Of a stretch of 64,000 nt of DNA, positions 36,448-55,472 are shown in pieces (position 1 is the first letter of the stretch; the number at the start of each line of letters is the position of its first letter). Under the pieces are notes generated by a model that was not told where the DNA came from, did not search any database, and saw only the letters and a list, made by a program, of their open reading frames with translations. The stretch spans positions 1,680,336-1,744,335 of the forward strand of contig CAVOFQ010000003.1 of assembly GCA_963695025.1 (NCBI GenBank). The letters run 5' to 3'. The position numbers and the translations under genes are program-made. This DNA comes from an uncultured Actinomycetes bacterium. GTDB taxonomy: Bacteria; Actinomycetota; Thermoleophilia; Gaiellales; JAICJC01.

Positions 36448-36453
36448 GTACCC

Positions 36454-36801: not shown

Positions 36802-38054
36802 GCGACGTCATCTCGCAGGTGGGGATTGCGCTCAAGGACGCATTCCTGATGGCATGGGAGGTGTGGTGGGCGCTGGTGCTGGGCTTCTTCATCTCGGCGG
36901 TCGTCCAGGCATGGGTGCCCCGCGAACGGATCGAGGCCAGGCTCGCCGGCGGCGGTCCCCGGCCGCTGGCATGGGCGACGGGGCTCGGCGCGGCCTCGTC
37001 GTCTTGCTCGTATGCGGCCATCGCGATCGCAAAGAGCCTGTTCCAGAAGGGGGCGTCTGCGTCGGCGGCGATCGCCTTTCAGTTCGCGTCCACCAACCTG
37101 GTGTGGGAGCTCGGCCTGGTGCTGTGGGTGCTGATCGGCTGGCAGTTCACCCTCGCCGAGTACCTCGGCGGCCTGGTCATGATCGTCCTGATGGGGCTCC
37201 TCGTTCGGGTTTTCATCCCCCCCGGGCTCGAGGAGGCGGCCCGCGAGCACGCGCGACAGGCCGGCAGCGGCCATCAGCACCACACGGCCGGCGAGCAGCT
37301 GCGGTGGCGCGAGCGGCTCACCTCGGTGTCCGCGTGGTCGGATGTCGCCCACAACTTCCGCGGCGACTGGCAGATGCTCTACCGCGAGATCGCAGGCGGG
37401 TTCGTCCTGGCCGGGGTCATCGGCCTGCTCGGAAACTCGGCCTTCAACACCCTCTTCGTGCACGACGCCCCCGAGCCGCTGCCCACGATCGAAAACGTGA
37501 TCGTCGGGCCGCTGATCGCCGTGCTCAGCTTCGTGTGCTCGGTCGGAAACGTGCCCCTGGCGGCGGTGCTCTGGTCGGGTGGGATCAGCTTCGCCGGCGT
37601 GCTCGCGTTCATCTTCGCCGACCTCATCGTGCTTCCGATCATCGCGATCTACCGCAAGTACTACGGCTGGCAGTTCACGATCCGGCTGACCGCGCTCATG
37701 TTCGTCACCATGGCCGCGGCCGCGCTTCTGATCGACGGGCTGTTCAGCCTGCTCGGCCTCGTTCCCACCGCCCGCCCGACGCGAGCGGACATCTTCCAGA
37801 CCATCCAGCTGGACTACAAGCTCGTCCTCAACGCGATCGCGCTCCTCCTGTTCGCCGCCCTGTTCGGGCTGACAATGCGTCGCGGGGCCACCGACCCCGT
37901 CTGCCACATGACGGTCGACCGCGCCAAGGCCAAGCGCCTCACCCTCGACGGTGCCACCCACTACTTCTGCTCCGACTCCTGCCTGCAGACGTTCGAGGCC
38001 GCTCATGCGGGCGAGAGGACTCGAACCTCCACGGCCAAGGCCACCGGCTCCTAA
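36798..38054 (+). CDS. PF03773-type permease fused to a C-terminal YHS/TRASH metal-binding domain
   Basis: Internal ATG 36798 of track ORF 36438..38054 (ATGA overlap with the arsR stop). Motifs AASSSCSYAAIAIA and SFVCSVGNVPLAAVLW. C-terminus DPVCHMTVDRAKAKRLTLDGATHYFCSDSCLQTFE. The last approx. 50 nt overlap tRNA-Leu on the other strand. Confidence 0.75.
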   Translation: MSDVISQVGIALKDAFLMAWEVWWALVLGFFISAVVQAWVPRERIEARLAGGGPRPLAWATGLGAASSSCSYAAIAIAKSLFQKGASASAAIAFQFASTNLVWELGLVLWVLIGWQFTLAEYLGGLVMIVLMGLLVRVFIPPGLEEAAREHARQAGSGHQHHTAGEQLRWRERLTSVSAWSDVAHNFRGDWQMLYREIAGGFVLAGVIGLLGNSAFNTLFVHDAPEPLPTIENVIVGPLIAVLSFVCSVGNVPLAAVLWSGGISFAGVLAFIFADLIVLPIIAIYRKYYGWQFTIRLTALMFVTMAAAALLIDGLFSLLGLVPTARPTRADIFQTIQLDYKLVLNAIALLLFAALFGLTMRRGATDPVCHMTVDRAKAKRLTLDGATHYFCSDSCLQTFEAAHAGERTRTSTAKATGS

Positions 38055-38086
38055 GGCCGGCGCGTCTACCAGTTCCGCCACACCCG
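38005..38086 (-). tRNA. tRNA-Leu (anticodon TAG)
   Basis: Reverse complement GCGGGTGTGGCGGAACTGGTAGACGCGCCGGCCTTAGGAGCCGGTGGCCTTGGCCGTGGAGGTTCGAGTCCTCTCGCCCGCA. 7-bp acceptor stem, long variable arm, anticodon loop CTTAGGA. Confidence 0.88.
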
Positions 38087-38114
38087 CGCGTGGGCGAAGT
38101 ATCCTACGACCACG

Positions 38115-38189
38115 CGGTGGCCGTAGCTCAGCTGGTGGTAGCCCCTGGTTGTGGTCCAGGAGGTCGTGGGTTCAAGTCCCACCGGTCAC
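38115..38189 (+). tRNA. tRNA-His (anticodon GTG) with encoded G-1
   Basis: GGTGGCCGTAGCTCAGCTGGTGGTAGCCCCTGGTTGTGGTCCAGGAGGTCGTGGGTTCAAGTCCCACCGGTCACC-C. Anticodon loop TTGTGGT. The extra 5' G pairs with C73. Confidence 0.88.
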
Positions 38190-38199
38190 CCTTTTCACT

Positions 38200-38273
38200 T
38201 GCGCCCGTAGCTCAGGGGATAGAGCAGCAGACTTCGAATCTGCCGGTCGTCCGTTCGAATCGGACCGGGCGCG
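38200..38273 (+). tRNA. tRNA-Arg (anticodon TCG); integration target of the downstream element
   Basis: GCGCCCGTAGCTCAGGGGATAGAGCAGCAGACTTCGAATCTGCCGGTCGTCCGTTCGAATCGGACCGGGCGCG. Anticodon loop CTTCGAA. Confidence 0.9.
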
Positions 38274-38276
38274 TCG
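38230..38276 (+). repeat. attL-type direct repeat (3' part of tRNA-Arg plus 3 nt)
   Basis: 47 nt, GACTTCGAATCTGCCGGTCGTCCGTTCGAATCGGACCGGGCGCGTCG, identical to 46742..46788. Weaker similarity continues for about 20 nt (AACCnGGCGGTTTnCGG). Confidence 0.9.
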
Positions 38277-38374
38277 GTCAACCAGGCGGTTTACGGGCGG
38301 TTCGCCGCGGGGCGATCAGGCAGGGTGGGAACAGAAGTGGGAACACCGCGATCGAAGGAAGAGCCCTAAGCACC

Positions 38375-38722
38375 GTGAGCGCCGGCCCGAGCAGAACCCA
38401 ACTCGCGGCCGCCGTGGCCCAGGCTGCGGAAGCGACGGCTCGCGCGCTCGTGCCGACGATCATCGTGTCCGACCAGGGCCACGGCGTCGAGACGGCGGGT
38501 GTCATCCGGCCCTCGCCGTTCCTGACGCCCGTCGACGGTCCCGATAGGGACGAGATCCTTCGACGCCTGGCGATCGTCGCCACGCTGACCAGCCTGCCTG
38601 TCTGGGCGACCTATCTCGAACAGTTATATGCCGCGTTGGTGCCAAGCGTTGGCCCGGATCTGGCCGTCATCGCCTGCGTCACCGTCTTGGGGTACATCTT
38701 GGCATACGTGTTCCGGCGCTAA
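38375..38722 (+). CDS. hypothetical protein with C-terminal TM helix
   Basis: Tail of artefactual track ORF 36854..38722, starting from GTG 38375. ...LAVIACVTVLGYILAYVFRR. G/C-rich third positions. No family recognised. Confidence 0.35.
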   Translation: MSAGPSRTQLAAAVAQAAEATARALVPTIIVSDQGHGVETAGVIRPSPFLTPVDGPDRDEILRRLAIVATLTSLPVWATYLEQLYAALVPSVGPDLAVIACVTVLGYILAYVFRR

Positions 38723-38961
38723 CCGAGCGTAGGCGGTTTACGACCCGTCGCGGGCGCCGTATTCGCCACGGAATGCCGTGGCCGTGTGGTCTCGGTGTGG
38801 TTTTGCCGATCTGCCGCCACGCGTACCGCCTCGCGTGGCGGCAGGTCGGCGAGTTCGGGGAACTCGGGCAGCGCCCGGATGCGCTCCGCCGCGGCCGCGG
38901 CCGCCTTGACCGCCTGCTCCCACGCAGCTACGGCGCGCTCGTCAACGTCCGGCCCCGCCAT
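38719..38961 (-). CDS. hypothetical protein
   Basis: 80-aa track ORF convergent with the previous one. Codon bias is compatible with coding. No family recognised. Confidence 0.3.
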   Translation of the reverse strand: MAGPDVDERAVAAWEQAVKAAAAAAERIRALPEFPELADLPPREAVRVAADRQNHTETTRPRHSVANTAPATGRKPPTLG

Positions 38962-39092
38962 CCGCGCGGCCGCCCGCTCGATGTCGCCGTCCGGCGCCTA
39001 TCCTCCCAGTCGAAGTGGACGCAGCCCCCTTCGCCGCCGAGCAGCAGGTCCCTGCTTTCTGAGCGTTTCCTAGGCCGCTAGGCTAAGTCCGG

Positions 39093-40058
39093 ATGCTGGT
39101 CTCGCGAAGCAATAGTGGGGCTGCGGCGCTCGAGCCGGTCGATGGTGCTGAAGTCACGCTGGTGGTGGATAACTTCGTCGATCTGTTGATGGCCGGCGTC
39201 GAGGGTGTGCAGCGGTATCTCGCCCGCGATTTCGGTGACCGCGAGCAACTGATCGCCGAGCATGGGTTCGCAGCGCTGCTCACGGTCGATCGCAGCGGCA
39301 AACGAAGCTCGCTTCTCTACGACGCCGGCATGACCCCGGCCGCACTGGGGCGGAACCTGGACGTGCTCGGAGTGGCGGTCAAGAACCTGCGCGCGATCGT
39401 CATCTCCCACGGCCACGCTGATCACCACGGCGGCCTGGAGGGCCTATTCCGACGGTATGGCCGCTGCAGCCTGCCGCTCGTGATCCATCCCGATGCGTGG
39501 CGCGAGCGGAAGCTCGTCTTCCCGACCGGAGCGGAGCTCCGCCTACCGCCCCCCAGCCGAGCCGATCTTGAGCGCGAGGGCCTCGAGCTGGTAGAGGAGC
39601 GGGGGCAAACGCTGCTGCTCGACGCCGCCGTCCTCGTGTCGGGGCAGGTCGAACGGTCGACGCCATTCGAGCAAGGCTTTCCGATTCATTACGCACGCGC
39701 CGGCGGCGACTGGAAACCTGACCCGGTCATTGTCGACGACCAGAACGTGATCGTGAAGGTCAAGGGGAAGGGCCTAGTGATCGTCTCCGGCTGCTCCCAC
39801 GCGGGGGCGGTGAACGTGCTGCGAAACGCGCAGCGCCTCACCGGCGAGCAGCGGATAGCGGGCTTCATCGGCGGTTTCCACCTCACCGGCGGGCTGTTCG
39901 AGCCGATCATTGAGCCGACGGTCGAGGCGTTCTCGCTCGCGCAGGTCGGCCGTGTGCTGCCCGCCCACTGCACCGGCTGGAAGGCAGTCCACACCCTCGC
40001 CCGAGCGATGCCGGCCGCCTTCGTCCAGCCAGCCGTTGGAACCACTGTCAGCTTCTGA
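39093..40058 (+). CDS. MBL-fold metallo-hydrolase
   Basis: 321 aa. IVISHGHADHHGGLEGLF is the HxHxDH motif. ...VIVSGCSHAGAVNVL. Confidence 0.8.
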   Translation: MLVSRSNSGAAALEPVDGAEVTLVVDNFVDLLMAGVEGVQRYLARDFGDREQLIAEHGFAALLTVDRSGKRSSLLYDAGMTPAALGRNLDVLGVAVKNLRAIVISHGHADHHGGLEGLFRRYGRCSLPLVIHPDAWRERKLVFPTGAELRLPPPSRADLEREGLELVEERGQTLLLDAAVLVSGQVERSTPFEQGFPIHYARAGGDWKPDPVIVDDQNVIVKVKGKGLVIVSGCSHAGAVNVLRNAQRLTGEQRIAGFIGGFHLTGGLFEPIIEPTVEAFSLAQVGRVLPAHCTGWKAVHTLARAMPAAFVQPAVGTTVSF

Positions 40059-40506
40059 GGCCCCGTACAGTGCGCTGCTGCCCGCATCGCTTCGCACCTC
40101 GACGGCGAATGCGAGTGGCTCGTCACCAACGGCGTCCTTCCCACCGATTTGGTCACGCGCAACCGCCGGATTGCCGAGGCTGCGCTCCGGCCGTGGACAC
40201 CGGTGTTCACGCACGGCGACCTGCAGATCACCCACGTGTTCGTCGACGGTGACCAGGTTACCGGCGTGATCGACTGGTCCGAGGCAGGCCGGGGCGATGC
40301 CCTGTACGACCTCGCCACCTTGCCGCTCGGACACGAAGAGCACCTAGGGAACGTCGTCGCCGGCTACGGCACTGAAGTCGACCTCGGCGTGATCCGCGCG
40401 TGGTGGTCGTTTGCGAAGCCTGCAGGCGGCCCGCTGGCTGATCGAGCACGGCTTCGACCCCTCCTCGCCAGGCTGCGAGTTCGCCGTCCTGAGATCCCAG
40501 CTGTGA
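40059..40506 (+). pseudogene. C-terminal fragment of an APH/choline-kinase-fold phosphotransferase, also frameshifted
   Basis: Only the catalytic half is present (…PVFTHGDLQITHVFVDGDQVTGVIDWSEAGRGDALYDLATL). There is no N-terminal ATP-binding lobe and it starts right after the MBL stop. Near 40410 the frame shifts to ...LRSLQAARWLIEHGFDPSSPGCEFAVLRSQL*. Confidence 0.65.
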
Positions 40507-40720
40507 GGCCGCCAAGCTCAGGCTCGAGCGGTTCCTGCGCGCTCGTGGCTACGAGTCGGCGGCTGATCGCGTGGCGTGAGTAGTGGGGGTCGGTGGTGTC
40601 GGGCACGACCCCTGGTGACTGCCGACCCCTGGGCGAGGGTACGTCGCGCCGATTGAGGGCGACTGCGCTCCCGTGTTCGGCGGGCTGCTGGGCTGCTTCC
40701 GTATACGGTAGGGTCGCGAC

Positions 40721-42143
40721 ATGGTGGCCGATCTGCTGCAGCGAAGCGCCAGCGACCAGGCCGCGATGGTGCGGGCGGGTGAGGTCCGGGCCCGCGAGTT
40801 GGTCGAAGCGGCGCTGGGCGCGATCGAGCGCCGGAACCCCGGTCTGAACGCGTTTGTGACGGTGTGTGGCGAACGGGCGCTGGCAGAGGCTGACACGGTG
40901 GGGGCGGGCGATCCGCGTCCGCTGTGCGGGGTACCGGTCGGGATCAAGGATCTGCTGTCGGCCACCGAAGGAGTACCGACCACCGAGGGCAGCCTCGGCT
41001 TCCCGGATTGGGTCGCCGCCCACGACTCGGCGCACGTGCGGCGGCTGCGTGAGGCCGGGGCGATCATTGTCGGCAAGACCAATACCCCGGAGCTGGGGTT
41101 GCGGCCAGTGACCGAGAATCGCCGCTTCGGCGCGACCCGGAACCCGTGGAACACCGAGCTGTCGGCCGGAGGCTCGTCGGGCGGGAGCGCTGCGGCGGTG
41201 GCGTCGGGGATGGTGGCACTGGCCGACGGCAGCGACCTCGGCGGGTCGATCCGGATCCCGGCGTCGTGTTGTGGGCTGGTCGGGCTCAAGCCGAGCCTGG
41301 GACGGGTGTCGATGGCGCCCGACTACGGCGATGTGGCGGCCGGCATGCCTGCCGACGGCGTGCTCACCCGGACGGTCATGGATACCGCCGTTGCACTCGA
41401 TGCGATCGCCGGCTACGAGTTCGGTGACCGGCACCGGGCGTGGACGCCTCGACAATCGTTTGTGGAGCTGGCAAGGGCCGACCCGGGCCGGCTTCGGGTG
41501 CGGGTGTGCGTGCGCGCACCACACGGCATCGAGGTCGACCCTGAGCCGGCGGCGGCGGCACGCGCGGCGGGCGAACTGCTGGCGTCGCTCGGCCACGAGG
41601 TCGAGGAGGTCGACTTCGGTTGGGAGGATGAGGCGTTCCCGTCCGCGTGGGGCACGTTCATGACCGGAACCGGACAACACCTGATCCGGATCGTCGAGCG
41701 CCTGCACGGGGGACGCGTCGACCCCGACCAACTGGAGCCGGCGACACGAGCCTGGCTGGTCGATTCCCTGCCGGTGCCACTGGTCGACTACCTGGAGGCC
41801 GGCGAGCAGCTGTTCCGATTCAGCCGGAAAGTGATCGACCAATGGCGTGGTGACCACGGTGCTGGTGACTCCGACACTCACGCGGCTGCCGGCGCCGGTC
41901 GGCGGCATCAGGTCGGCGGCCGGCGTGACCGACGACGCCAGCCGCTTCAGCGCCCTGGTGCGGATCTGGAACGTCACCGGCCAACCAGCGATCAGCCTTC
42001 CGCTCGCCCGCACCGACGACGGCCTCCCGATCGGCGTCCAACTGGTCGCCGCGCCCGATCGCGACGACGTGCTGATCAGTCTCGCAGCCCAACTCGAGGC
42101 AGCCGTCGGCTGGCCGGTCGTTGCCACAACGGAACACCCCTAA
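40721..42143 (+). pseudogene. amidase-signature family amidase, frameshifted near 41846
   Basis: Track ORF 40721..42241 carries GVPVGIKDL...GGSSGGSAAAVASGMVALADGSDLGGSIRIPASCCG. After ...VIDQW the sense continues in track ORF 41847..42143 (VVTTVLVTPTLTRLPAPVGG...GQPAISLPLARTDDGLPIGVQLVAAP). Confidence 0.75.
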
Positions 42144-42174
42144 CGTCGCGACGCCCTCCCGGAAAGGAGAAGCC

Positions 42175-42454
42175 ATGTACCTCGGCATCTACGAGATTGA
42201 CGGTGACCCAAACGAGCTGCTCGCCGCCTACGATCGGTTGATCGCGATGATGCCCGAGGGCCAGGTTGTGTTTCACGCCTTGCGCCATCCGTGAGAACGG
42301 CATGACCATCTACGACGCCTGCCCAACTAAGGAGGTGTTCGAGCAGTTCTCGACCTCCCCGGAGTTTCGAGGCGCAACCGAGGCTGCAGGCCTCCCCTGG
42401 CCCAGCCGGATCGAGGGACTGCAGCTTCACGCCGTACGCGCCAAAGGTGTCTAA
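42175..42454 (+). pseudogene. small (approx. 92 aa) protein, frameshifted near 42280
   Basis: ATG 42175 after GGAAAGGAGAAG: MYLGIYEIDGDPNELLAAYDRLIAMMPEGQVVFHA, then a stop. The +1 frame (track ORF 42266..42454) continues CAIRENGMTIYDACPTKEVFEQFSTSPEFRGATEAAGLPWPSRIEGLQLHAV. An extra T at 42280/42281 explains the shift. Confidence 0.6.
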
Positions 42455-42919
42455 GAGGCCTGGTTCGCCGTTCGCGAGTTTGGCGCACCCGCTCGGCATG
42501 TAGCGCGGCTCAGACGGACCCCTTGCCGCGCCATCGTGGCCGGGGGTAGATTCGGGACTGGCCCGCCGGGCGCGGCTTTCCGATTCGGGCCCGGCTCGTG
42601 GTGTGGTTTGTGAGCCGTTGCAGGCATGGCCGCTCCTCGTACCGCTGGCGCCGAGGTGCGCGAGCTCGTCGGCGTGCTCACTGCTTCGGGTGCAGGACCA
42701 GGTCGCGCAGTCGCGGGTCGAGCAGTTCCTGCGTGGCCGGGGGAACACACCCCGGCGCGAAGCTGTCGCCCTCGACGGCGGCAAGAGTGTGGTGGGCAGC
42801 CAAGCGGGGGGAGGCGGGGGTCACTCTGGTGGGGGGTCTTGCGCGCTGTGGCGCAGGGTATGGCCGCCCGTGGGGTCTTGTTAGGTGACAGGAATCCTCG
42901 GCTCCAGGAGCGCCCGTCG

Positions 42920-44008
42920 ATGTTTATTGCACGGTCTATGCGGTCTGAACCCGCGCTCGCGGCTTTGTCGGTCAGGCGTTGGCGCCGCATCGGGCTGGCG
43001 TCGGCGTTTGACCGTTTCCGTCCCGCCGGGCGCGGCCAGGCCGGGCAGACGCTGCCGTTGATCTGTCTGTTCTCGATGACTCTGCTCGGGTTCGTCGGCT
43101 TGGTGATCGACGTGAGCAGCACGTATGTTCAGCGACAAGAGATCCAGAACGCGGCCGATGCCGCTGCGCTGGCGGGCGCGGCGGCGATTCCCACCGGGAC
43201 ATACCAGACGGCAGCCCAAGAGATCGCAACCAAGAATGACGTTACCGGCGACCACGTCGCGGTTAGCTTCAACAACACCGACTCGGTGACCGTCACCGTC
43301 ACCCGGTCTGCCCCCACCTACTTTCTGCGCATGTTCGACATGAACTCGATCTCGGTGTCCGCCACCGCCACGGCCAGGATCGAGGCGATCGGTCAAATCC
43401 AGGGGCACGTGTCCCCCTACGTGGTTACCCAGCAGGCATATGCGAACGGCACCGGAACAACGCTCTTTACGGAGAACGGACCCGGCTCCTACGGCACCGT
43501 CGACCTGCCCACTTCGGACAACACCTCCGGTGGCAGTTGCACCGGCAACACCAACAAAGGCACACCCACAAACATCGGCAACGAGCTCAGCGACCAACTC
43601 GCGACCGGGTCGCTCCTGGTCGGAGGCTGCCTGTCGGTAAAAGGCGGCGCATCCCAGCCATCGGCGAACATCGTCAACCAGATCCCGCCGGCCAACAACG
43701 CCATGAGCCAAGACCTGCAAAGCCAGGGCAACGGCCAATACCAAGTCATCCCCCAACCATGGGACGACGCCAACGGCCTGCCCCCACGGCTGATGTACAT
43801 CCCCATCGTCCAATCGCTGCCCGGCGGCAACGGCAACGCCACCATCACCAGCTTCGCCTGGTTCTACCTGACCAGCGCCACCGGCGGCGGCAGCGGCCTC
43901 ACCATCACCGGACAATGGGTCACCGTCGACCTACCCGCCACAGGACAAACCACCACCTACCAACCCGGCGTCCAAGGCCAAATCCTCGCCATCGAACTCA
44001 CCCAATAA
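42920..44008 (+). CDS. TadG-like (Tad_N / Flp pilus-assembly TadE/G-like N-terminal domain) protein, paralog 1
   Basis: Part of track ORF 42626..44008, starting at ATG 42920 (start uncertain). GQTLPLICLFSMTLLGFVGLVIDVSSTYVQRQEIQNAADAAALAGA is the Tad_N signature. APTYFLRMF, LVGGCL and the C-terminal ...LTQ are shared with paralog 2. Confidence 0.75.
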   Translation: MFIARSMRSEPALAALSVRRWRRIGLASAFDRFRPAGRGQAGQTLPLICLFSMTLLGFVGLVIDVSSTYVQRQEIQNAADAAALAGAAAIPTGTYQTAAQEIATKNDVTGDHVAVSFNNTDSVTVTVTRSAPTYFLRMFDMNSISVSATATARIEAIGQIQGHVSPYVVTQQAYANGTGTTLFTENGPGSYGTVDLPTSDNTSGGSCTGNTNKGTPTNIGNELSDQLATGSLLVGGCLSVKGGASQPSANIVNQIPPANNAMSQDLQSQGNGQYQVIPQPWDDANGLPPRLMYIPIVQSLPGGNGNATITSFAWFYLTSATGGGSGLTITGQWVTVDLPATGQTTTYQPGVQGQILAIELTQ

Positions 44009-44064
44009 CCCCTGCCCACCCATCCACCCCAAAACAAACCACATCGTGCTAGAAGGAGAACCAC

Positions 44065-44223
44065 ATGTCACACACGCTCGCCAAACTACACGCCGAGGCC
44101 GGCCAGACGATGGCCGAATACGCCGTCGTCCTGGGCGTCATCACCATCGCCGTAGTAGTCACCCTGGGATTGCTCAGCACCGCCATCCAGGGCACCCTCA
44201 CCAACGTCATCGCCGCCCTCTAG
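44065..44223 (+). CDS. flp: Flp family type IVb prepilin (52 aa)
   Basis: Not in ORF track (below the length cutoff; the overlapping track ORF 44046..44243 is in the wrong frame). GAAGGAGAA lies 5 nt upstream of the ATG. MSHTLAKLHAEAG|QTMAEYAVVLGVITIAVVVTLGLLSTAIQGTLTNVIAAL contains the G/xxxxEY processing motif followed by a hydrophobic helix. Confidence 0.85.
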   Translation: MSHTLAKLHAEAGQTMAEYAVVLGVITIAVVVTLGLLSTAIQGTLTNVIAAL

Positions 44224-45087
44224 ACCGCCGCGACGGGGTATAGAACGTTCGGGGTGGCCGGCGCACGTCCTTCGGTCGAGCGGCCGGCCGTCGCCACCTA
44301 TGCGGTTGGCCGCTTGAGCGCGACTGCCAGGAAGCCAAGCGGTGGAGGGTTACGGGAGCGTCGCCGAGGTACTCTCGGCGGCACGGGAAGTCGAGCGGGC
44401 CGCCTGCTCATTGACGTGTCAGGTGGCCGCGTTCTCCATCTAGGCGGATGCGGGTATTGGTGGGTGGGGTGGCCCGGCCTGCAGGCAGCGCCTCCGCCGC
44501 CATCTCGCGGTCGCCGTCGACCTCGGCGGGGTCGGCGAGCAGTCCGACCAGGACGAAGCGCCATTCAGGCTGGGTGCAGCGGCCCGAGCATCGCTGCAAG
44601 CCGAACATGAGTTCCGACTCATACCACCGGTCAAGCAGCGCCGCGCGCCTGAGCGGATCGTCGTGCTGTTGTCGCTCGCAGGGCTCGTCACGCTGGTCGG
44701 GGTGAGGCGCCCCGCATCGTGGGCAGGGGAAGCTGCCAATCGGCGACGATCGTTTTGTAAAGGACCGGTCTCAGATTGCCGGATCTCGTCACTGACGTTG
44801 CCGGTCGCGCCGCCTTGCTAGTCGCAACGATGCTCCATGCCCAGCCCGCGGACTGTTGCTGCTCAACTATCATGATCAACTCTTTCGGGGGCGGGGGGTA
44901 GCGCGCTTCCGCGAAGCTTGTACGCTGGATGTATGTCACCGAGTCGGGACCCATCAGGGCCGATTCGGTGTACTCGCATCCTTTAAGACACACCAAGGGC
45001 TCGATACGGAAGGGCCGTCGTCCCCCGAGGCAGTACTTCCCGCGATTGCGTATTTCGCTCGAGCCACCCGACTCCAAAGACATCCCC

Positions 45088-46071
45088 GTGGGCGGACTCC
45101 AACAAGCGCGTGGCCAGACGCTACCCGTGATCGTGCTTTTCATGGTGAGCATTCTCGGCATAGCTGGTCTTACGATTGATGCAGGCAGTTTGCTCCAAGC
45201 CAAGCAAACCACTCAGGTGAATGCGGATGCGGCTGCGCTCGCGGTTGCACAGGGCATGGTCAACGGTCAGTGGTCAACCTACGCGGCGCACAACTTCGGC
45301 GTCAACAACAAGACCACCGAGTCCGGCAGCTACTCGCTGACAACGTACCTCGCGGCAAACGACTCGGTCACCGCCACAGTCGTCTACCAAGCACCCACCT
45401 ACTTCAGCAAGATGTTCGGGTTCACCTCCGTACACGAGCAATCAGTTGCGCGGGCAACGGTGCAAAGCGTGCACTCATTCAGCGGGTCAAAAATGCCGTT
45501 CGCGCTCTTCAACAACTGTGTCCCGCCGATCGGCCAGACCGTCGTTGTCTACGGCGGCTCGAGTTGCGGATCGTCATCCTCAAACGTAGGCTCGATCCAA
45601 CTGCCGGCCTCCGGCCAGACCGCAGGCTCGTGCGACTCAAAGGGCGTTCCAAACTACACGCCCGTTGGCAACGGCAACGAGTTCGACAAGATCATGAACG
45701 GAACAGTTGCGACCGGCAACGTGCTCGTCGGCGGGTGCCTCGCACAGACGCAGACGGGCAAGGGCAGCGGTCCCGGCAACGACCTGTTCGCCGACTACCC
45801 CAACACGTCGCTCTGGCCCCCTGGCCGCGCTGATCCCGGTTGTGCAACAGGCCGCCGGCCAAGGCACCAAGGGCCATACACCGTGACCGCGTTTGAATGG
45901 ATCAGCATCACCGGGTGTTCGGGGGGCACCGGCCCAGTCTCCTGCAGCGGAGTCAGCGGCAAAGAGATCGACGGCCTACGACTCGGGATCTACGACGGAA
46001 CATCCTGCGCCGGGATCGTGACCGGCCCATACATCCCAGGCTATGCAAACAGCCTCGGCCTCACACAGTAG
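45088..46071 (+). CDS. TadG-like protein, paralog 2 (start uncertain; about 17 internal codons appear out of frame)
   Basis: Track ORF 44929..46071; GTG 45088 is my tentative start. GQTLPVIVLFMVSILGIAGLTIDAGSLLQAKQTTQVNADAAALAVA, APTYFSKMF, LVGGCL, ending ...LGLTQ. Between about 45829 and 45880 the +1 frame (ALIPVVQQAAGQGTKGH) aligns with paralog 1 (MYIPIVQSLPGGNGNAT), whereas the ORF frame (ADPGCATGRRPRHQGP) does not. Confidence 0.6.
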   Translation: MGGLQQARGQTLPVIVLFMVSILGIAGLTIDAGSLLQAKQTTQVNADAAALAVAQGMVNGQWSTYAAHNFGVNNKTTESGSYSLTTYLAANDSVTATVVYQAPTYFSKMFGFTSVHEQSVARATVQSVHSFSGSKMPFALFNNCVPPIGQTVVVYGGSSCGSSSSNVGSIQLPASGQTAGSCDSKGVPNYTPVGNGNEFDKIMNGTVATGNVLVGGCLAQTQTGKGSGPGNDLFADYPNTSLWPPGRADPGCATGRRPRHQGPYTVTAFEWISITGCSGGTGPVSCSGVSGKEIDGLRLGIYDGTSCAGIVTGPYIPGYANSLGLTQ

Positions 46072-46082
46072 AAAGGACTGGA

Positions 46083-46268
46083 ATGAAAGTCTGCTCGAAC
46101 GACAACTGCAGCGCAACCGTATGGGACGACAACCAGATCTACTGCTCAGGTTCCTGCCAGATCATGCACCTCCGCAACATGTCCGAAGCAGACGCCCGCA
46201 TCGCGAAGCGCGGCGCGATCGAGGGTGGACTTCGGCAGCGACTCAGCCTCCCGCCCTTCAATTCCTAG
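46083..46268 (+). CDS. small four-Cys (zinc-ribbon-like) protein
   Basis: ATG 46083 after AAAGGA, within track ORF 45897..46268. MKVCSNDNCSATVWDDNQIYCSGSCQIMHLRNMSEADARIAKRG... Cys spacing is CxxxxC...CxxxC. Confidence 0.5.
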   Translation: MKVCSNDNCSATVWDDNQIYCSGSCQIMHLRNMSEADARIAKRGAIEGGLRQRLSLPPFNS

Positions 46269-46326
46269 GCCAAACCGTGGGCGCGCGGGGCGGCCGGGCC
46301 ATGTGATGTTCCGACGGAGGGGATGA

Positions 46327-46692
46327 CCTGCGCGCTCGGTCGACTCCGACCCGGTATTCACGAGCTCGACCGACGCGATGCTCGACCCGAGCAACCTGGC
46401 TGCGCGAGTCGTCAAGCCCGCGGCTCGAGCGGCCCGGCGTCGAGTGGGCGGCGTTCCACACGCTGCGCCATACCTGCGCGACGGAGCTCTTCCGTCGCGG
46501 CCTGAACGCCAAGCAGGTGCAGCTATGGTCGGCCACCACTCCCCCGCCTTCACGCTCCCCGTGTACGTGCATGTGCTGTCCGACGAGTTGCCGGCGTCAC
46601 CGTTCGAGCCGGAGGGTGGGAATCAGGTGGGAACGAGACCGACCGAGGCCGGGCGAGAAGCCTCGTCGATCGTCGCGGCCGAAACCGCCTGA
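46327..46692 (+). pseudogene. tyrosine recombinase/integrase remnant (C-terminal catalytic part only, internally frame-shifted twice)
   Basis: Frame of track ORF 46378..46692 reads ...DPVFTSSTDAMLDPSNLAARVVKPAARAA. The next frame reads PGVEWAAFHTLRHTCATELFRRGLNAKQVQLW. The first frame then resumes GHHSPAFTLPVYVHVLSDELP (HxLRH box and catalytic Tyr). There is no N-terminal core-binding or SAM-like domain upstream. Confidence 0.8.
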
Positions 46693-46741
46693 TAGCAGCA
46701 GGTTTCCAGCCTGCCCGAACAAGGGCGAGACAGCGCCGAGC

Positions 46742-46788
46742 GACTTCGAATCTGCCGGTCGTCCGTTCGAATCGGACCGGGCGCGTCG
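46742..46788 (+). repeat. attR-type direct repeat (displaced 3' fragment of tRNA-Arg)
   Basis: Identical to 38230..38276. It lacks the 5' half of the tRNA, so it is not a functional tRNA. Confidence 0.9.
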
Positions 46789-46997
46789 CCTAACCGGGCG
46801 GTTTCCGGCGACCACACATTGGCACGCTTCGTTGTTCTCAACCTGTGAGCCGGGTGCGGGGTGGTGCGGCTGATCGCTTCCTTTTGACGACAAAAATCAT
46901 TCTCTAGGCAACCAAATGTACGATCGCGCGCATGCCACGCCGACCAACCGCAGCCCACTGCATCTGCGCCCACCCGATCGACCCGTTGGCTCGGCGG

Positions 46998-48429
46998 ATG
47001 ACCGCTGCCCGGAGACGGCGAGTCGCGGCCGTGGCGCTCATGGTTGGGTTGTCGGCAGGGTGTGTCGGAGGGTCGACGGGGACCGAATCGACGATGCGCG
47101 GGACTCGCACGGAGGCGGCGATGACGAGCCCCGCGGGGATCCACAGGATCCGGCATGTGATCATCATCACGCAAGAGAACCGTTCGTTTGACTCCTACTT
47201 CGGCACCTACCCGGGCGCTGACGGGATCCCGATGCGCAACGGGCGACCGGCGGTGTGCATTCCCGATCCGCTCCGTGGTCGGTGCCAGCGTCCATACCAC
47301 GACCGGGCGCTGGTAAACGGCGGAGGGCCCGCACGGGCCGAGATCAGCTGTGAGGGATATCGGTGGTGGTCGGATGAAGGGGTTCCTGCGCCAGGCTGAA
47401 CAGGGCCGGCCAGGCTGCCTGCGCTCGTTTGGGCCGCTCAACCCGCTCTGCAGCCTGTCGCGGCTGCATCCCGACGTGATGGGCTATCACACCGCCGCGG
47501 AGATCCCCAACTACTGGGCATATGCACGCCGCTTCGTGCTGCAAGACCACATGTTCTCCCCGAACCTGGGCTGGAGCCTCCCCGCCCACCTGTACGGAGT
47601 ATCGGCGTGGTCGGCCACGTGCAAGAACCGCTCGCCCATGAGTTGCACCACTGCCCTCGGGATCCGGCGGGGCGGCAGGTCGGCGTTCACCGCGCTGCCG
47701 AGTACGCCATTCCGCTGGACGGACCTCACCTACGTACTCCACCGGGCGCATGTCAGCTGGCGCTACTACGTCCACGCCGGCCGCCTGCCCGACTGCGCCT
47801 CCGGCGCCCAGAAATGCCACCTCCCCCGACTGTCCGCCAAGACACCCGGAATCTGGAACCCTCTGCCGAGGTTCACGACCGTCCGCAAAGACCACCAATT
47901 GGGGGACATCCAGGGTGTACGCCGATTCTTCACCGCCGCTCGCAGGGGCGCCCTCCCTGCCGTTGCATGGATCGTCCCCGACGAGAAGCACAGCGAGCAC
48001 CCACCCGCAAACATCGCCGTCGGCCAAGCATGGGTAACCCACATCATCAACGCCGTCATGCGAAGCTCCGACTGGAACTCCACCGCCATCTTCCTCACCT
48101 GGGACGACTGGGGCGGCTTCTACGATCACGTTCGCCCACCCATCGTCGACCGCTACGGCTACGGACTGCGCGTCCCCGGCCTTGTCATCAGCCCCTATGC
48201 CCGCCAGGGCTACGTCGACCATCAAACCCTCAGCTTCGACGCCTACCTCAAATTCATCGAAGACGACTTCCTCCACGGCCAACGCCTCAACCCCAGAACC
48301 GACGGCCGACCCGACTCCCGACCCACCATCCGCGAAAACGCTCCCATCCTCGGCAACCTCACCCACGACTTCAACTTCCACCAACCCCCCCAACCGCCCT
48401 TCATCCTCCCACAGTACCCACACATCTAA
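46998..48429 (+). pseudogene. phosphoesterase-family (PLC/AcpA-like, PF04185-type) lipoprotein, frameshifted near 47325
   Basis: ATG 46998: MTAARRRRVAAVALMVGLSAGC (lipobox), then IRHVIIITQENRSFDSYFGTYPGADGIP (track ORF 46932..47399). The sense continues in track ORF 47350..48429 ([21 protein letters not shown]...[28 protein letters not shown]...[11 protein letters not shown]...[13 protein letters not shown]). Confidence 0.75.
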
Positions 48430-48780
48430 CGGCCAGGCATCGCCGCCCTGGCGAAACCAATATCACCATGCCTCACGGCGGACGTTCGTTGGGAACCTCG
48501 AGACCCGCCCGTGAGCTCGGCGACGATCGTCGCCGCCGGCATGGTCGCGTGCACGTCGCCGACTGAGGTTCGGGCATACATCGGCATCGCGGAGATCTCG
48601 CCATGCGCGGCGCCGGTCGGTGGTACCGGCGCGAACGGGGGAAGGCTGCGCTCAGCGACCGTGGCCACGACCTCCCTGTGAATGACGCGCGCCGCCGAGC
48701 CGATGCTGCCCGAGGCGACGCCGGGCAGATCGACCGCGGAGATCGTGTGCGCGCTGGGCCGAACTCGACGGTCGGATTGC
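48430..48780 (-). pseudogene. possible relic of an acetamidase/formamidase-like gene
   Basis: The minus frame reads ...ISAVDLPGVASGSIGSAARVIHREVVATVAERSLPPFAPVPPTGAAHGEISAMPMYARTSVGDVHATMPAATIVAELTGG. The GDxHA...E context is reminiscent of the FmdA/AmdA family. There is no start and no N-terminal part. Weak call. Confidence 0.25.
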
Positions 48781-49605
48781 CTACCGGCGGCCAGCGACGG
48801 CGAGTATGGCGTTGGTGCTGTCGTGCACGAGGCTCGGGGAGGGTTGTCCGCCGGGGAGTTCGACGACGAAGGAGGTCGTGCCAGGGAGTCGATGGTTCTC
48901 CCACCCGGTGACGCTTCCGGGATACCGCGGCAGTCGTGCTGCCGGCAGGTCGACCAGCCGGGCGAATCGGCGCTCGATCGCCACGGCTCCTCCCCCGAGG
49001 TCGACGACCGCGAGCGCCTGATGAAACCAGATCGAAAGCGTGGGCCGCACGTGGAGGATCAGGTTCGCCACGGCTCGGCTCTCAGGCTCGCTGAGGGGGC
49101 CGCGGCCGGAGTAGTGGACATCCCCGGGGCGGCCGATCCGGTGCCAACGGTAGGGAAAGTTCCGATTCAGGTCGACTTGATCACCGTTTTGGCGGCGGCG
49201 CGTCGCCAGGCCGTCTGGATTCAGCACCGGCACAAGCCAGAATGCCACCTCAGGTGAGAGCCGGCTGGTCATCAGCGTTCGCACAACCGCGATCCCGCCG
49301 GGCTCGTCTCCATGGATACAGCCGACCACGAGCACCCGATGAGACGCGTCCGGATCTCCTGATGTGTACAGCCACACCACTCGACCATCGACGGACCTGG
49401 CCAAGACTTCCCGCGCGCGGATCGGCGCCTCATCCTCCGACCGCGCCCGCCGTGCGGATCTGAGCGGAACAACGCGCGCGGTCGATCGCGGTGCGCTTCC
49501 GGTCGGCGCGCCGGCGGGCGCAGACGCGCAGCCGGCCCCCACTAGGAACACAAACACCGCCAGCACGCCGCATATGACGAACGGGTCCGACGCCGGCTGC
49601 CGCAT
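48781..49605 (-). CDS. M14-family zinc carboxypeptidase-like lipoprotein
   Basis: Track ORF 48781..49698. I start at ATG 49605 (MRQPASDPFVICGVLAVFVFLVGAGC, lipobox). VVGCIHGDEPGG, VPVLNPDG, VDLNRNFPYRW motifs. Confidence 0.8.
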   Translation of the reverse strand: MRQPASDPFVICGVLAVFVFLVGAGCASAPAGAPTGSAPRSTARVVPLRSARRARSEDEAPIRAREVLARSVDGRVVWLYTSGDPDASHRVLVVGCIHGDEPGGIAVVRTLMTSRLSPEVAFWLVPVLNPDGLATRRRQNGDQVDLNRNFPYRWHRIGRPGDVHYSGRGPLSEPESRAVANLILHVRPTLSIWFHQALAVVDLGGGAVAIERRFARLVDLPAARLPRYPGSVTGWENHRLPGTTSFVVELPGGQPSPSLVHDSTNAILAVAGRR

Positions 49606-49769
49606 CGGTTTACCCCGGGCGGCTCGTCTCGCGCGGGCACCGCCGCAGGAATGCCCCCCATCTGCCACGCGCATACCAGAACCATCGCAAACATGCATTG
49701 ACCCGAGGTTCGACCCGTGCGCACCATCCGCCGAACGGCCGAAACCGATGGTAGAGTCTGGAAACTGTC

Positions 49770-50378
49770 ATGCCGGGCCGATTCGAAGAGCTGATGGAGA
49801 GGTTGCGCGAGCTGCGGATTCGACGCCGGGGGCGGACCTCCCGGCCTCACGGGCTGGCGCACCGCCTTGGCGATCCGTTCGAGCGTCTGCGCGAGAGCGG
49901 GCGCTTCTCCGGCCTGCGGCACCGCGTGCGGCCGTGGCAGGCCGTTCCGGCGCTGGTCGCGGCGATCGCGCTGATCGTCGGCGGGTTCTGGCTGGGCGGC
50001 GCCATCGGCGGCCATGCAAGCGCAGCGACGCTCGTCCGCACCCTGACGGGCAAGGTGCTCACGAAGAACGGGATCCGCTACGTGAAGACGCCCGCCACGA
50101 CGGTGAAGGTCAACGGCAAGACGGTCCAGATCCCGGCCCGCACGGTCGCGCTGGCCGCAGACACCGTCATCTCCGGCACGACGGTCGCTGTCCCAATCAA
50201 TAGGACCGTCCCGGTGACGATCTTGACGACGGTCAATCACACGACGACCACGACGGTCGTCCAGACGCTCACCTTGACGGGGCCGACAACGACCGTTCAG
50301 GGGCCAACGCAGACGGTGACCGACACCATCACCATCACGCTGCCGGGGACGACCGTCACGCTGCCCGCGACGAGCTGA
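49770..50378 (+). CDS. single-pass membrane protein with Thr/Val-rich extracytoplasmic region, hypothetical
   Basis: 202 aa. Charged N-terminus, TM helix AVPALVAAIALIVGGFWLGGAIGG, then TTVKVNGKTVQIP...TTTTTVVQTLTLTGPTTTVQGPTQTVTDTITITLPGTTVTLPATS. Confidence 0.6.
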   Translation: MPGRFEELMERLRELRIRRRGRTSRPHGLAHRLGDPFERLRESGRFSGLRHRVRPWQAVPALVAAIALIVGGFWLGGAIGGHASAATLVRTLTGKVLTKNGIRYVKTPATTVKVNGKTVQIPARTVALAADTVISGTTVAVPINRTVPVTILTTVNHTTTTTVVQTLTLTGPTTTVQGPTQTVTDTITITLPGTTVTLPATS

Positions 50379-50621
50379 GGCCACTTCGTCGTGTCCGGCT
50401 CGGCGCCGCGCGCCGATCAACGGGGGATCACAGGCGGCCCATTCGGGGGATTGGCTTTCCCGGGCTGTGTCCGAATTTGTGAGTAGTGAGCGCGGCCGCC
50501 GGGGGGACGGCGTCGCGCCGAAACCTTCCTCGGAGGCACGGACGTGGCGCACCTCTCCGTCGAGCACTCGAACCGAATCGTTGCCTTGGCCGTCACGAGA
50601 GGACGACGCACTCGCGGGTCG

Positions 50622-51888
50622 ATGGCGGGTCAGGTGTTGCCGCTGGTGGTCGTGTTCATGTTCACGCTTCTGATCTTTCGCCGGCTTGGTGATCGACCTG
50701 GGCAATGCCTATCGGGTGCAGCAGGCGCTGCAGGCCTCGGCGGACGCCTCGGCCGCCGCTGGAGCCGGCCAGTTGACCCTGACATACCCGCCGCAGGTCG
50801 CGACGGCCACGTCGCAGGCGCAGAAGTACGGGTCGCAGTCGGGCGGCCAGAACCCGATCACCGGCGTCCCCGCCGGCAACGTCACCCAGACGGTCACCGT
50901 CACATGTGCGCCTCAGGCCGGCTACAACTGCAACTCGGGGTACGCCAACACGGTCACGGTCAACGAGACGGCCAGCGTGCCCACCTACTCTGCTCAAGCT
51001 GCTCGGGTTCAGCACCATCAGCCTCAACGCCCATGCGCAGGCCTGTTCACCGTGCGGTGGGGTGCCGCTGGACGTGATGATCGTGCTTGACCGCACGGGG
51101 TCGATGGCCGACAACAACAAGCTCAGCCAGGCGAAGGCGGGCATCACCGCGTTCATGAAGACCATGGACCCCACGCTTGACAACGTCGGGCTGGCCGTCC
51201 TCCCGCCGGCACCGAGCGTGGCCGCGCCCTGTGTCGATGTCGACCCGTACTTCAACGACCGTAAACGCCGAGGGCCAGTACGACGGCAGCGGGGGCACCT
51301 ACAGCCTCCCCAACGCCGCATACACACTGGTGCCGCTGTCGAACACCTATGCGTCGAGCGTCGGCAACCTCAACAACGGATCGCCCCTGATATCGACCAT
51401 CAACTGCGTCCAGGCCGGCGGGGGCACGGCCTACGCCGAGGCAATCGACGCAGCATACGCCGAACTGCAAAAGGACGGCCGCCCCAAGACGCAGAAGGTG
51501 ATCGTGTTCCTCTCCGACGGCGCGGCCAACGACGCCCCCATCTCGCTGCCGGCCACCTCGCCGTATCGAACGAACCCCTGCGGCCAAGGCGTCACCAGCG
51601 CCGGGATCGCCAAGGCCGCCAAGGTACTCGTGTACTCGATCGCCTATACCGCCAACGGAGACAACTGCTACGCCGCGGTGGGCGCGAACGTGGGCGGCAA
51701 GATCGTCACCACCTACGACGGAACCCTCGAGTCGCCGGCCATCGCCGCACAGCCAGGCCCTCCAGAGCATCGCCAGCACCGGCAACGGCACCTACTTCTA
51801 CGACCTCCCCAATCCCACGTCGCTGACCGGCATCTTCCAGCAAATCGCGGCAGACATCACCGGCGGCACCGCACGCATCGTCCAATAG
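50622..51888 (+). pseudogene. TadG-like N-terminal domain + von Willebrand A domain protein, four successive +1 frame disruptions
   Basis: MAGQVLPLVVVFMFTLLIF (frame 0). Shift near 50678: AGLVIDLGNAYRVQQALQASADASAAAGAG...NETASVPTY (frame 1). Shift near 50990: LLKLLGFSTISLNAHAQACSPCGGVPLDVMIVLDRTGSMAD (MIDAS)...DPYFND (frame 2). Shift near 51260: VNAEGQYDGSGG...GGGTAYAEAID...KVIVFLSDGAAND...TLESPAIAA (frame 0). Shift near 51750: SQALQSIASTGNGTYFYDLPNPTSLTGIFQQIAADITGGTARIVQ* (frame 1). Confidence 0.75.
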
Positions 51889-53086
51889 TCAGCACCCCGT
51901 AGCGTTCCCGGACCGCCACCCTCCTCCTTCGCGGGCGGGCCGGACCACTCGGGGGCGACCTTCGTGCTGTCGCTCGTGCTCTTCCCGACGTGATGGGCGT
52001 GGCCATCCTCCGCTATCGCCTGTACGACATGCGCCCGTCGCCGAGCGAAAGACCGCGCCCAGAACGGCGATCCCACCGAGGGTAGAGCAACGCGAGTACG
52101 GCGACCAGGCAGGTGTACACCAGGGGGTTGCGGATCACGACGTCTTGCGGCCCTCAAATCACGACGCGTGAGCGCCCGCCGCCGCGAGCTCCAGATGATC
52201 GTGGATTGCGCCCGCGACGAGATCGCGGCAGGCGCTGCTGTGCCCGTTCGCCAGCTCGAGGGCGGGTGTGAACACGGCACGGCGGGCGACTCTGCGATGG
52301 AGCTGAAGCGTCGCGGCGATGGCGCCGTGCATGCGCACGGGATCGCCCTCGGTCGCGCCCCGGACGATCCGGGCGACCAGAGCGGACGGAGTGAATTCGA
52401 TCTCGGGTGGTGAGGTCACTCCCGTCCAGTCTGGCGGCAATCGCCGCCGGAGAATCTGGGAATTGCGGTAACCCGGCCCACCAATCGTGGTATCTCCACT
52501 CGCCAGGATGCGCCGCGCACTCGAAGTCGCACAATCGCGCCGACGTGGCATGCGTCCTCACGAACGGAGGGTCGTGTGTCGGCGCCGGACGTCCAGCACA
52601 AACCAGGTCGGGCCGCTCGCGCGCCATCCAGAGAGCCCGTCGGTGCCGGCCATCGTGACCTCGACGCGGTCGCCGGCCCCGGTCTGCGATCCTACCGTCA
52701 CCCCTGCATACGGCCCCTGGGATCAGCCGACGGCGGGAACCCTGCCCCACGCGGCGGTGACCGCGATGTCGGCCATCGCCTGCGAGCGCTCGCGCGCATC
52801 CTCCGGAGTGTGCACCCGCACCGAGTGGGGCGTGTCGCCCATCGGCGAGACGACCTCGCCGTAGAGCCCGGCGGCAGCACTGCGAGCGACATCCTCGGAC
52901 GATCCCGCCGCGACCGTCACCCACCGGTTCGGGCGGAAGATGTTGAAGCGCGCCTGGGCGAACACCACATCGTCAGAGGCATCCATATCGGGGCTCACCG
53001 TAGCGACGAACCCCCGTGCTGTCGACCCCCTTTACAAACCTCTCCAACAAAATTCTCAACTCACATGGCACACGTACACTGGTTCC

Positions 53087-55376: not shown

Positions 55377-55472
55377 GCCGCGGCCCGAAGCGGATGCCAT
55401 CGAGCCAATGGCGGATCCGACCGATGAAGCAGGTCGAGCTAGGTGGGAGCCGATCCGCGAACGAGGGGCGAT

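Follow-up and report, generated by a model that had tools for sequence, protein, structure and literature searches.

How do subunit genes of a Tad-type pilus come to lie in a chromosomal segment that carries none of the machinery by which such pili are built? The question is raised by a 64,000-nucleotide stretch of contig CAVOFQ010000003.1 (assembly GCA_963695025.1, positions 1,680,336 to 1,744,335), hereafter called the window, which belongs to an uncultured Actinomycetes bacterium of the order Gaiellales. A preliminary description of this DNA, made from the letters alone, had pointed to a short pilin gene, flp, placed between two TadG-like paralogues (here TadG-A and TadG-B) on the remnant of a mobile element. 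The answer that we regard as rather likely is that the window holds two separately portable cassettes of Tad (type IVc) subunit genes, situated in a dead tRNA-Arg island of a Gaiellales chromosome, and that these would feed a machine encoded elsewhere.

The flp and TadG genes

The flp gene is located at 44065..44223 on the forward strand and was characterized by translation of the open reading frame (ORF), Pfam comparison, homologue alignment and the ratio of non-synonymous to synonymous substitution rates (dN/dS). Its 52-aa product is exactly the peptide given in the preliminary description, and the Shine-Dalgarno sequence named there, GAAGGAGAA, is indeed found at 44052-44060, 4 nt ahead of the ATG. 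Conservation, on which the Flp proposal had been made to depend, turned out to be extensive: a protein search gave 994 homologous clusters, most of them 52 aa long and most annotated as Flp pilin, with relatives labelled 'Flp family type IVb pilin' and with Gaiellales as the source wherever an organism is given. When we aligned 120 of the 994 clusters, G13, Q14, T15, E18 and Y19 proved to be invariant, together with most of the hydrophobic helix, and the leader was variable. All 120 match Flp_Fap (PF04964) at E<0.01 (best 1.3e-7), with DUF4244 matched equally well. The window peptide itself scores 19.8 bits (E 7e-4, profile positions 5-46 of 46) against a curated cut-off of 32.2. The claimed Flp identity thus stands on the signature and the matches of the relatives, its one weak point being the sub-threshold hidden Markov model (HMM) score of the peptide itself. 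Together with dN/dS values of 0.09-0.14 against counterparts at other loci, the homologues, the invariant residues and the PF04964 matches identify 44065..44223 as a real gene, one that escaped annotation through length cut-offs.

In Tad systems the peptidase TadV is known to cut its substrates Flp, TadE and TadF at G/XXXXE(Y/F) (Tomich et al. 2006, cited after PMC12075869). The window Flp reads ...AEAG13/QTMAEY19AVVLGVITIAVVVTLGLL, that is G/XXXXEY followed by a hydrophobic segment, and the predicted cleavage after G13 would leave a 39-aa mature pilin starting with QTMAEY. The same layout, a prepilin of ~50 aa with a short polar leader, G/XXXXEY and a hydrophobic helix of ~20 residues, is known from Flp1 of Aggregatibacter actinomycetemcomitans and PilA of Caulobacter. 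Like the Flp/Fap major pilins, the window peptide matches PF04964 over the whole profile. It differs from them in staying under the curated cut-off with an equally good match to DUF4244, in lying away from tadA/B/C/V and behind a TadG-like gene instead of heading a tad operon, and in being one of several flp paralogues per genome.

The gene directly upstream, TadG-A (42920..44008, forward strand, 362 aa), was analyzed by Pfam, homologue search, AlphaFold2 (AF2), hydropathy and dN/dS. An AGGAG sits 9 nt ahead of its ATG, and flp begins 56 nt past its end, the two being probably co-transcribed. Against the Tad_N profile (PF13400) TadG-A scores 53.1 bits (cut-off 22.3) and against Tad_C (PF09977) 24.0 bits (cut-off 22.1); in NCBIfam it matches the Rv3654c-type TadE-like family at sub-threshold level only. 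Its 383 homologues share 60-91% identity, and the named ones are called 'TadG-related protein [Gaiellales bacterium]'. Against three relatives the dN/dS values are 0.14, 0.19 and 0.23. Neither TadG-A nor flp is broken or shortened, the Shine-Dalgarno sequences of both are preserved, and intact homologues share 87-91% identity with them; their substitution patterns indicate that both are under purifying selection.

TadG-B (45088..46071, forward strand, 327 aa) was delimited by Pfam, homologues and an alignment with a related contig, L110. Its ORF is open from ATG 44929, and because of the similarity to L110, which covers 44895-46264, the real start is placed at GTG 45088 and not at that ATG; the segment from 44895, where the L110 homology begins, to 45087 (forward strand) is its upstream leader. 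TadG-B scores 31.6 bits against PF13400, so the Tad_N domain that had been read from the motifs is present in both flanking proteins. The two share 28% identity over ~330 residues (E 7e-20), including the motifs quoted in the preliminary description, and on this alignment they are true paralogues. A third TadG-like gene further downstream (see below) had been missed. We found only 23 homologues of TadG-B, and relative to all relatives 17 of its codons, at ~45820-45870, are out of frame: the relatives' LAVLIPVVQQVAGQGTK reads PGRADPGCATGRRPRHQ in TadG-B, with PLAALIPVVQQAAGQGTKGH found in the +1 frame of the window. The shift is due to two compensating 1-nt indels, one C gained within a C-run at ~45820 and one missing at ~45868, and it removes the invariant IPVVQ strand. 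Outside the shifted stretch, dN/dS is 0.16. Behind TadG-B follows a Cys-rich ORF (46083..46268, forward strand, 61 aa, MKVCSNDNCSATVWDDNQIYCSGSCQ..., with CxxxxC...CxxxC), which is conserved behind the TadG-B orthologue in L110 (5688-5888). Its dN/dS of 0.19 points to purifying selection; the ORF has no Pfam and no PHROG match.

What kind of protein is TadG-A? Its full-length homologues begin with a variable basic leader of 15-40 residues, after which a conserved (E/Q)xG-QT(L/A)PLICLF is found. In TadG-A the motif reads G41-QTLPLICLF, and residues 45-63, a transmembrane helix, form its most hydrophobic segment. The AF2 model, computed with 139 sequences (predicted local distance difference test, pLDDT, 79.5; predicted template modelling score, pTM, 0.70), shows a disordered stretch (1-34), a 45-residue helix (44-88), a short helix (95-105), strands at 112-117, 122-132 and 143-157 and then a beta-rich domain up to the C-terminus (~150-362). 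Modelled alone, the N-terminal module gave the identical topology (pLDDT 82.9). This layout of a helix and three strands is the one described for CpaL and TadG-like tip pilins, and a pilin-like fold of TadG-A is, judged from the model, plausible. Foldseek gave no significant match for the whole model against PDB and BFVD, nor for the N-terminal module against PDB, and a PDB sequence profile search with TadG-A returned nothing. A search of 1.84 billion representatives gave no more than 25 clusters related to the C-terminal half (150-362). That the C-terminal regions match nothing recognizable therefore holds: this domain is lineage-restricted and without structural match.

Upstream of TadG-A lies a leader (42650..42919, forward strand) that travels with the gene, as judged from the blastn boundary at 42650 and the alignment with relatives. 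Its last ~130 nt (42790-42919) are 82-88% conserved, even where the TadG protein is only 74% identical, with counterparts at 2154-2282 in L024, 4512-4638 in L022 and 8100-8181 in L023. The segment 42790-42919 contains the direct repeat GGGGTCTTG twice, ~37 nt apart, and a predicted hairpin. A coding sequence extended upstream (the ORF is open from 42626) was considered and rejected: the relatives differ here by 1-nt indels, and since these are not multiples of 3 the leader is non-coding. An Rfam search gave no match, and RNAalifold on four sequences yielded three compensatory pairs, which are too few to claim a structure. An RNA or regulator-binding element is a possible reading of the leader.

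Two cassettes in a tRNA-Arg island

The preliminary description had treated flp and the two TadG genes as one module. Comparison with other loci takes this module apart into two independent cassettes of ~1.4-1.6 kb each: cassette 1 consists of TadG-A and flp (42650-44223), cassette 2 of TadG-B and the Cys-rich ORF (44895-46268). Members of the TadG-A 90% cluster are found on 16 metagenome contigs. In L024-L029, TadG (362 aa) is followed by flp (52 aa) in the order and spacing of the window; the DNA is 87% identical over 42650-44211 only, from ~270 nt 5' of TadG-A to the flp stop, and the flanks are unrelated to the window. L022 carries TadG-A at 89% with the same leader and without flp. Cassette 2 has its counterpart in L110, again 87% identical over 44895-46264 with unrelated flanks, where the TadG-B orthologue (85%) and then the Cys-rich ORF stand 59 nt past a tRNA-Thr gene amid housekeeping genes, and neither flp nor TadG-A nor an integrase lies close by. 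At none of the other loci seen do the two cassettes occur together. In the window they are separated by a 670-nt spacer, which holds the remnant of a small gene (44525..44660, reverse strand; tblastn 54% over 67 aa, blastn 74% over 136 nt). This remnant (..DPLR.A.LDRW.ESE..FG..RC.G.C.Q.E.R..L.GLL.D..) is inverted relative to its counterpart in L022 (5780-5915, forward strand), which lies directly past TadG, and it has no start codon 5' of the conserved part.

Both cassettes lie inside a tRNA-linked island. ARAGORN places a tRNA-Arg(TCG) gene, the integration target, at 38200..38275 (forward strand), as the last member of a tRNA-Leu/His/Arg cluster (38006-38275) that is also present in the relatives L111 and L112. 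Repeat search and blastn-short revealed a 47-nt direct repeat, the last 47 nt of tRNA-Arg including one extra base, whose left, attL-like copy (38230..38276) and right, attR-like copy (46742..46788), a displaced tRNA-Arg 3' fragment, are identical at 47 of 47 positions. The similarity runs on for 20 nt at 15 of 20 positions, to 38296; a third copy of the tRNA-Arg end, or another border of a tandem island, was not found in the window. The 8.5 kb between the repeats (38277..46741) stand out by gene content, by GC content, which drops from 69% for the window to 0.62-0.65 at 43-47 kb, and by their absence from L111. This relative, which was found via the exact ClpX sequence, has an identical ClpX, is collinear and 89-93% identical over 21.5-36.4 kb, has the same tRNA cluster and contains nothing of 38277-46741, with homology returning only at 51929. 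Its site is filled with other DNA and is thus not a clean empty site. The island encodes a hypothetical protein, a metallo-beta-lactamase (MBL)-fold hydrolase, an APH-like fragment, a frame-broken amidase, small ORFs, the two cassettes and, just inside the right border, a tyrosine-integrase remnant (46336..46692, forward strand).

Three-frame translation of this remnant recovered the catalytic C-terminal third only (HxLRH...GHHSPAFTL.VYVH), the N-terminal two-thirds being missing. One frame gives FHTLRHTCATELFRRGLNAKQVQLW and the next gives GHHSPAFTLPVYVHVLSDELP, with a frameshift at ~46525, and after mending of this one frameshift the 118-aa product covers positions 93-169 of the 172 in the PF00589 profile (5.4e-12). 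The truncation is structural and real. With no excision, transfer or replication genes left, the island at 38277-46741 is best described, from its sequence, as integrated at tRNA-Arg with a dead integrase, non-functional as it stands, and as immobile now. The mobile-element remnant of the preliminary description has thereby gained exact borders.

Cassette 2 ends ~70 nt short of the start of the integrase remnant. The truncation of the integrase at the very place where cassette 2 ends suggests that the cassettes entered a resident island through secondary recombination, which would have destroyed the integrase, and not as cargo carried in by it. Small promoter-proximal cassettes beside a tyrosine recombinase also brought an integron-like array to mind. 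This idea was dropped: the integrase points in the direction of the cassettes and is tRNA-att associated, and inspection of the alignments at the four cassette borders gave no shared repeat, although no formal attC search was made. A scan for promoter and terminator consensus sequences was uninformative.

The strongest competitor is the one put forward in the preliminary description, namely that the island is a transferred element with flp and both TadG genes as a single module in its cargo, able to re-dress a resident Tad pilus. The genes do lie in a bona fide tRNA-linked island that a close relative lacks, the GC content at 43-47 kb is lowered, and both cassettes occur in different contexts elsewhere and are hence mobile. 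TadG-related genes of other genomes, moreover, often lie just past tRNA genes. Within 1.5 kb upstream a tRNA gene was found in 3 of 11 other TadG contexts: tRNA-Thr in L110 (4372-4445, the 59 nt mentioned above), tRNA-Leu in L001 (9444-9529, 470 nt) and tRNA-Trp in L005 (8428-8500, 1.5 kb). Such proximity to tRNA genes is commoner than expected by chance and hints that tRNA-linked hot spots exist. On the other hand, no tRNA-derived direct repeats were detected around TadG in these three contigs, some stand-alone copies sit amid housekeeping genes, and no relative turned up on plasmids, in phages or on IMG/VR contigs when TadG-A and alignments of TadG and of Flp served as queries. Added to the separate occurrence of the cassettes and the truncated integrase, which argues for a later insertion, these results leave horizontal carriage as element cargo unlikely in our view. 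The broader notion that pilus tip properties are swapped by mobile DNA remains plausible by analogy: the 'adaptable tips' of Myxococcus are a precedent (PMC12075869).

Tad-type genes across Gaiellales and what they may do

Where, then, is the machine that would use these subunits? A tblastn search found no T2SSE-like sequence in the window or in 29 Gaiellales flp/TadG-related loci (~0.4 Mb), and Pfam found no T2SSF or A24 peptidase among the window's remaining ORFs of membrane or unknown type, which bears out the statement that no Tad machinery gene is present there. A Tad ATPase within 10 kb was seen in 0 of the distinct Gaiellales flp/TadG contexts examined. An approximate TadA/CpaF core alignment retrieved 80 real TadA loci from metagenome contigs, and none of them has a flp or TadG of the Gaiellales type. 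The TadG-related gene stands alone in L001, L005-L009 and L022, it is joined by one or two flp genes in L002/L003, L023 and L024-L029, and L010/L011 carry a tandem flp pair. The commonest Gaiellales flp, which is identical on 270 contigs, occupies a conserved chromosomal site after a MarR-like gene; in L012-L021 (~5250-5660, 10001-10159) a second, more divergent 52-aa flp-like ORF is located 4.5 kb upstream of it, and here too no Tad machinery is found within 10 kb of flp. A scan of genome contigs with TadG-A gave 4 loci only. One 2.29-Mb contig contains two TadG-related paralogues 680 kb apart, and the source contig of the window probably holds another flp locus. The 'orphan' state of flp is therefore no peculiarity of this element; it is the rule at every Gaiellales locus examined. 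Since distance from the machinery is typical for Gaiellales, it is no evidence for horizontal carriage. A literature search on Tad pili in Gaiellales or Thermoleophilia found nothing, and as far as the searchable literature shows this is the first description of Tad-type genes in Gaiellales.

In two unrelated contexts, genes of extracytoplasmic function (ECF)-type sigma factors adjoin the TadG-related genes (L001, 11142-12566; L023, 5810-7213 and 9334-9900), one of them encoding a long fusion of sigma/anti-sigma-like type that carries (GKGTGN)n repeats as its tail. The adjacency may reflect a regulatory link to TadG.

On the reading that we prefer, a peptidase of the TadV/CpaA type would cut the 52-aa Flp prepilin after G13, and a TadA/B/C machine encoded elsewhere would polymerize the mature pilin. 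The N-terminal hydrophobic helix of TadG-A would anchor the protein in the membrane and continue as a long pilin-like alpha-1 on a small beta-sheet. TadG-A itself would be a large minor pilin situated at the pilus tip or close to it, where its lineage-specific, beta-rich C-terminal domain would be exposed and set the binding specificity. Cassette 1 would in this way provide a shaft subunit together with a matching large tip or priming subunit, and cassette 2 an alternative TadG. The locus would then be one entry in a Gaiellales repertoire of scattered flp/TadG-related pilus parts.

A second explanation is that the region is a hot spot of insertion and recombination gathering dead fragments, in which TadG-A, flp and TadG-B are non-functional as well. 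There is indeed visible damage. The shifted codons of TadG-B have cost it the IPVVQ strand, the integrase is truncated and frameshifted, and the spacer between the cassettes holds a gene remnant. Furthermore, frame-broken genes cluster at 40700-55400: besides the integrase remnant, these are the amidase (40721-42143), a phosphoesterase (46932-48429), the third TadG-like gene, another phosphoesterase-like gene (52940-54121) and a GH5-like gene (54171-55376). The housekeeping genes at 0-38 and 55-64 kb are intact, those at 0-38 kb including obg, rplU, RNase E/G, rodA, PBP2, mreBCD, ndk, valS, clpXP and tig. Nearly all of the frame switches are +1, that is single-base losses, and contigs of the same sequencing project contain many split housekeeping genes. 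The breaks may therefore reflect real decay, or they may be single-base deletions that a long-read assembly introduced by error where coverage was low or the segment heterogeneous; the indels of TadG-B in C-runs fit the pattern expected from such errors as well. TadG-A and flp, as described above, are undamaged in length and in their Shine-Dalgarno sequences, at 87-91% identity to homologues that are themselves intact, TadG-A has a dN/dS of down to 0.14, and even TadG-B is constrained outside the shifted stretch. We thus regard general decay of the three genes as improbable.

Several observations weigh against the assignment of these genes to a working pilus. The Flp score lies under its curated cut-off and the peptide matches DUF4244 just as well. 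The class III signal peptide, G/A-X4-E/F, is not found in the TadG proteins, where TadG-A has G41-QTLP-L46 and TadG-B has G-QTLP-V; position +5 is aliphatic, and because it is Leu or Val, not Glu or Phe, cleavage of both is doubtful, and they may be plain membrane-anchored proteins. The Foldseek searches were empty. Tad ATPase, platform protein and prepilin peptidase were seen nowhere, so that the machine is assumed, and no TadE/TadF partners lie near the cassettes. Finally, many neighbouring genes are frame-broken and TadG-B itself has frame damage. A third explanation takes the TadG-related proteins for surface proteins that are anchored in the membrane and work on their own, and the Flp-like peptide for a small protein of the membrane, neither of them in need of Tad. 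It would agree with the missing machinery and TadE/TadF, the aliphatic +5 position, the lack of a fold match to pilins and the ECF sigma/anti-sigma-like neighbours of some copies, yet it is very improbable given that G/xxxxEY is invariant in 120 of 120 Flp relatives, a constancy not easily accounted for unless a prepilin peptidase and the assembly of filaments are involved, that Tad_N and Tad_C are domains of pilus systems, and that the TadG-to-flp adjacency recurs.

The preferred reading of two portable cassettes can be carried one step further. Tentatively, and with clearly less confidence, one may imagine a single Gaiellales Tad machine that is served by a library of exchangeable TadG(+Flp) cassettes, shuffled within and between genomes with a preference for tRNA-linked hot spots. 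Each cassette would have its own conserved leader and a tip-domain fold unseen in solved structures, and by a co-travelling flp the tip protein would bring along its matched shaft subunit. Were such a library real, shaft and tip specificity would be a horizontally tradable trait in an abundant uncultured soil lineage.

Known systems and the neighbouring DNA

Every component found here is of a known kind, be it the Flp pilin, the TadG-like minor pilin whose head varies, the orphan pilin loci or the tRNA-linked island. Tip complexes have as their backbone TadG-like proteins, large minor pilins by which modular domains are exposed (PMC12075869). TadG-A and TadG-B resemble TadG, CpaL of Caulobacter (PMC12607857) and KilN of the Myxococcus Kil 'Tip' (PMC12075869) in the Tad_N helix that leads into a long alpha-helix and a three-stranded sheet, in the large variable C-terminal domain and in the presence of several paralogues per genome, which suggests alternative tips. 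Unlike TadG and CpaL, however, they lack a domain of the von Willebrand factor A type (vWA): neither protein gave a VWA match, and the AF2 model of TadG-A is beta-rich and not Rossmann-like, as would be expected for a vWA fold with its MIDAS (an adhesion site that depends on a metal ion). Instead they carry the lineage-restricted beta-rich domain, and vWA is confined to the frame-broken third gene. Unlike all three known proteins, they have no adjacent TadE/TadF, and Leu or Val in place of Glu or Phe follows at +5 after the Gly.

Pilin and minor-pilin genes that lie away from the main Tad cluster are familiar from rhizobia, as in smc02446 of S. meliloti and tadGEF locus 3 of B. diazoefficiens (PMC10934763). 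There, orphan flp and separate tadG loci still serve the main Tad cluster, and such loci are thought or have been shown to feed a machine encoded elsewhere (PMC10934763). The Gaiellales case differs in that a TadG+flp cassette with its own conserved leader turns up in varied contexts across genomes and, here, in a tRNA-linked island. Like other tRNA-integrating islands, the present one is bordered on either side by a perfect repeat of the tRNA 3' end, has an integrase gene just within one of these borders, is missing from a close relative and has a lower GC content. It departs from them in that the integrase has lost ~two-thirds of its length and is frameshifted, that genes for excision, transfer and replication are missing and that the adjoining 5 kb are variable too.

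Against this background, stand-alone pilin genes are normal for Gaiellales and the locus is a well-documented example, not a new system. What is modestly new is the TadG+flp cassette with its own leader in varied contexts, and the lineage-restricted head domain without structural relatives. As it stands, the gain is mainly one of annotation, with a missed Flp gene, exact island borders and the replacement of one module by two cassettes. If the preferred reading is true, the locus shows how an abundant uncultured order of soil actinobacteria diversifies its adhesion pili with relocatable TadG(+Flp) cassettes, and the 'adaptable tip' principle of Myxococcus and Caulobacter would reach soil bacteria of the Gram-positive type. 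For a lineage-specific tip domain without structural relatives, efforts to solve the structure and to find ligands would also be reasonable.

The third TadG-like gene (50616..51887, forward strand), recognized from Pfam fragments and frame analysis, has Tad_N and vWA and thus belongs to the classical TadG/CpaL type. Its fragments match Tad at 2.6e-4 (21.7 bits) and VWA_2 at 1.4e-4 and 2.3e-4, and they contain a MIDAS-like DRTGS. Four +1 frame switches split the gene, which lies outside the island in a 5.1-kb segment (46789-51928) that is absent from L111 and that also encodes the phosphoesterase, an M14 peptidase and a Thr-rich membrane protein (49770-50378). In L111 (reverse complement, 15297-17525), 2.2 kb of unrelated DNA replace this segment, from which it follows that the region downstream of tRNA-Arg is a variable hot spot shaped by more than one event. 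Further on, L111 encodes a two-component system that is not in the window.

Two other neighbours deserve mention. The MBL-fold hydrolase of the island (39093-40058, forward strand) matches Lactamase_B, and its similarity to the anti-Pycsar protein Apyc1, sub-threshold at 20.2 bits against a cut-off of 50, is probably generic MBL likeness. Beside the tRNA cluster, an ArsP_1/YHS permease gene (36438-38054, forward strand) is absent from L111 and present in L112, where it is accompanied by an HTH_5 regulator.

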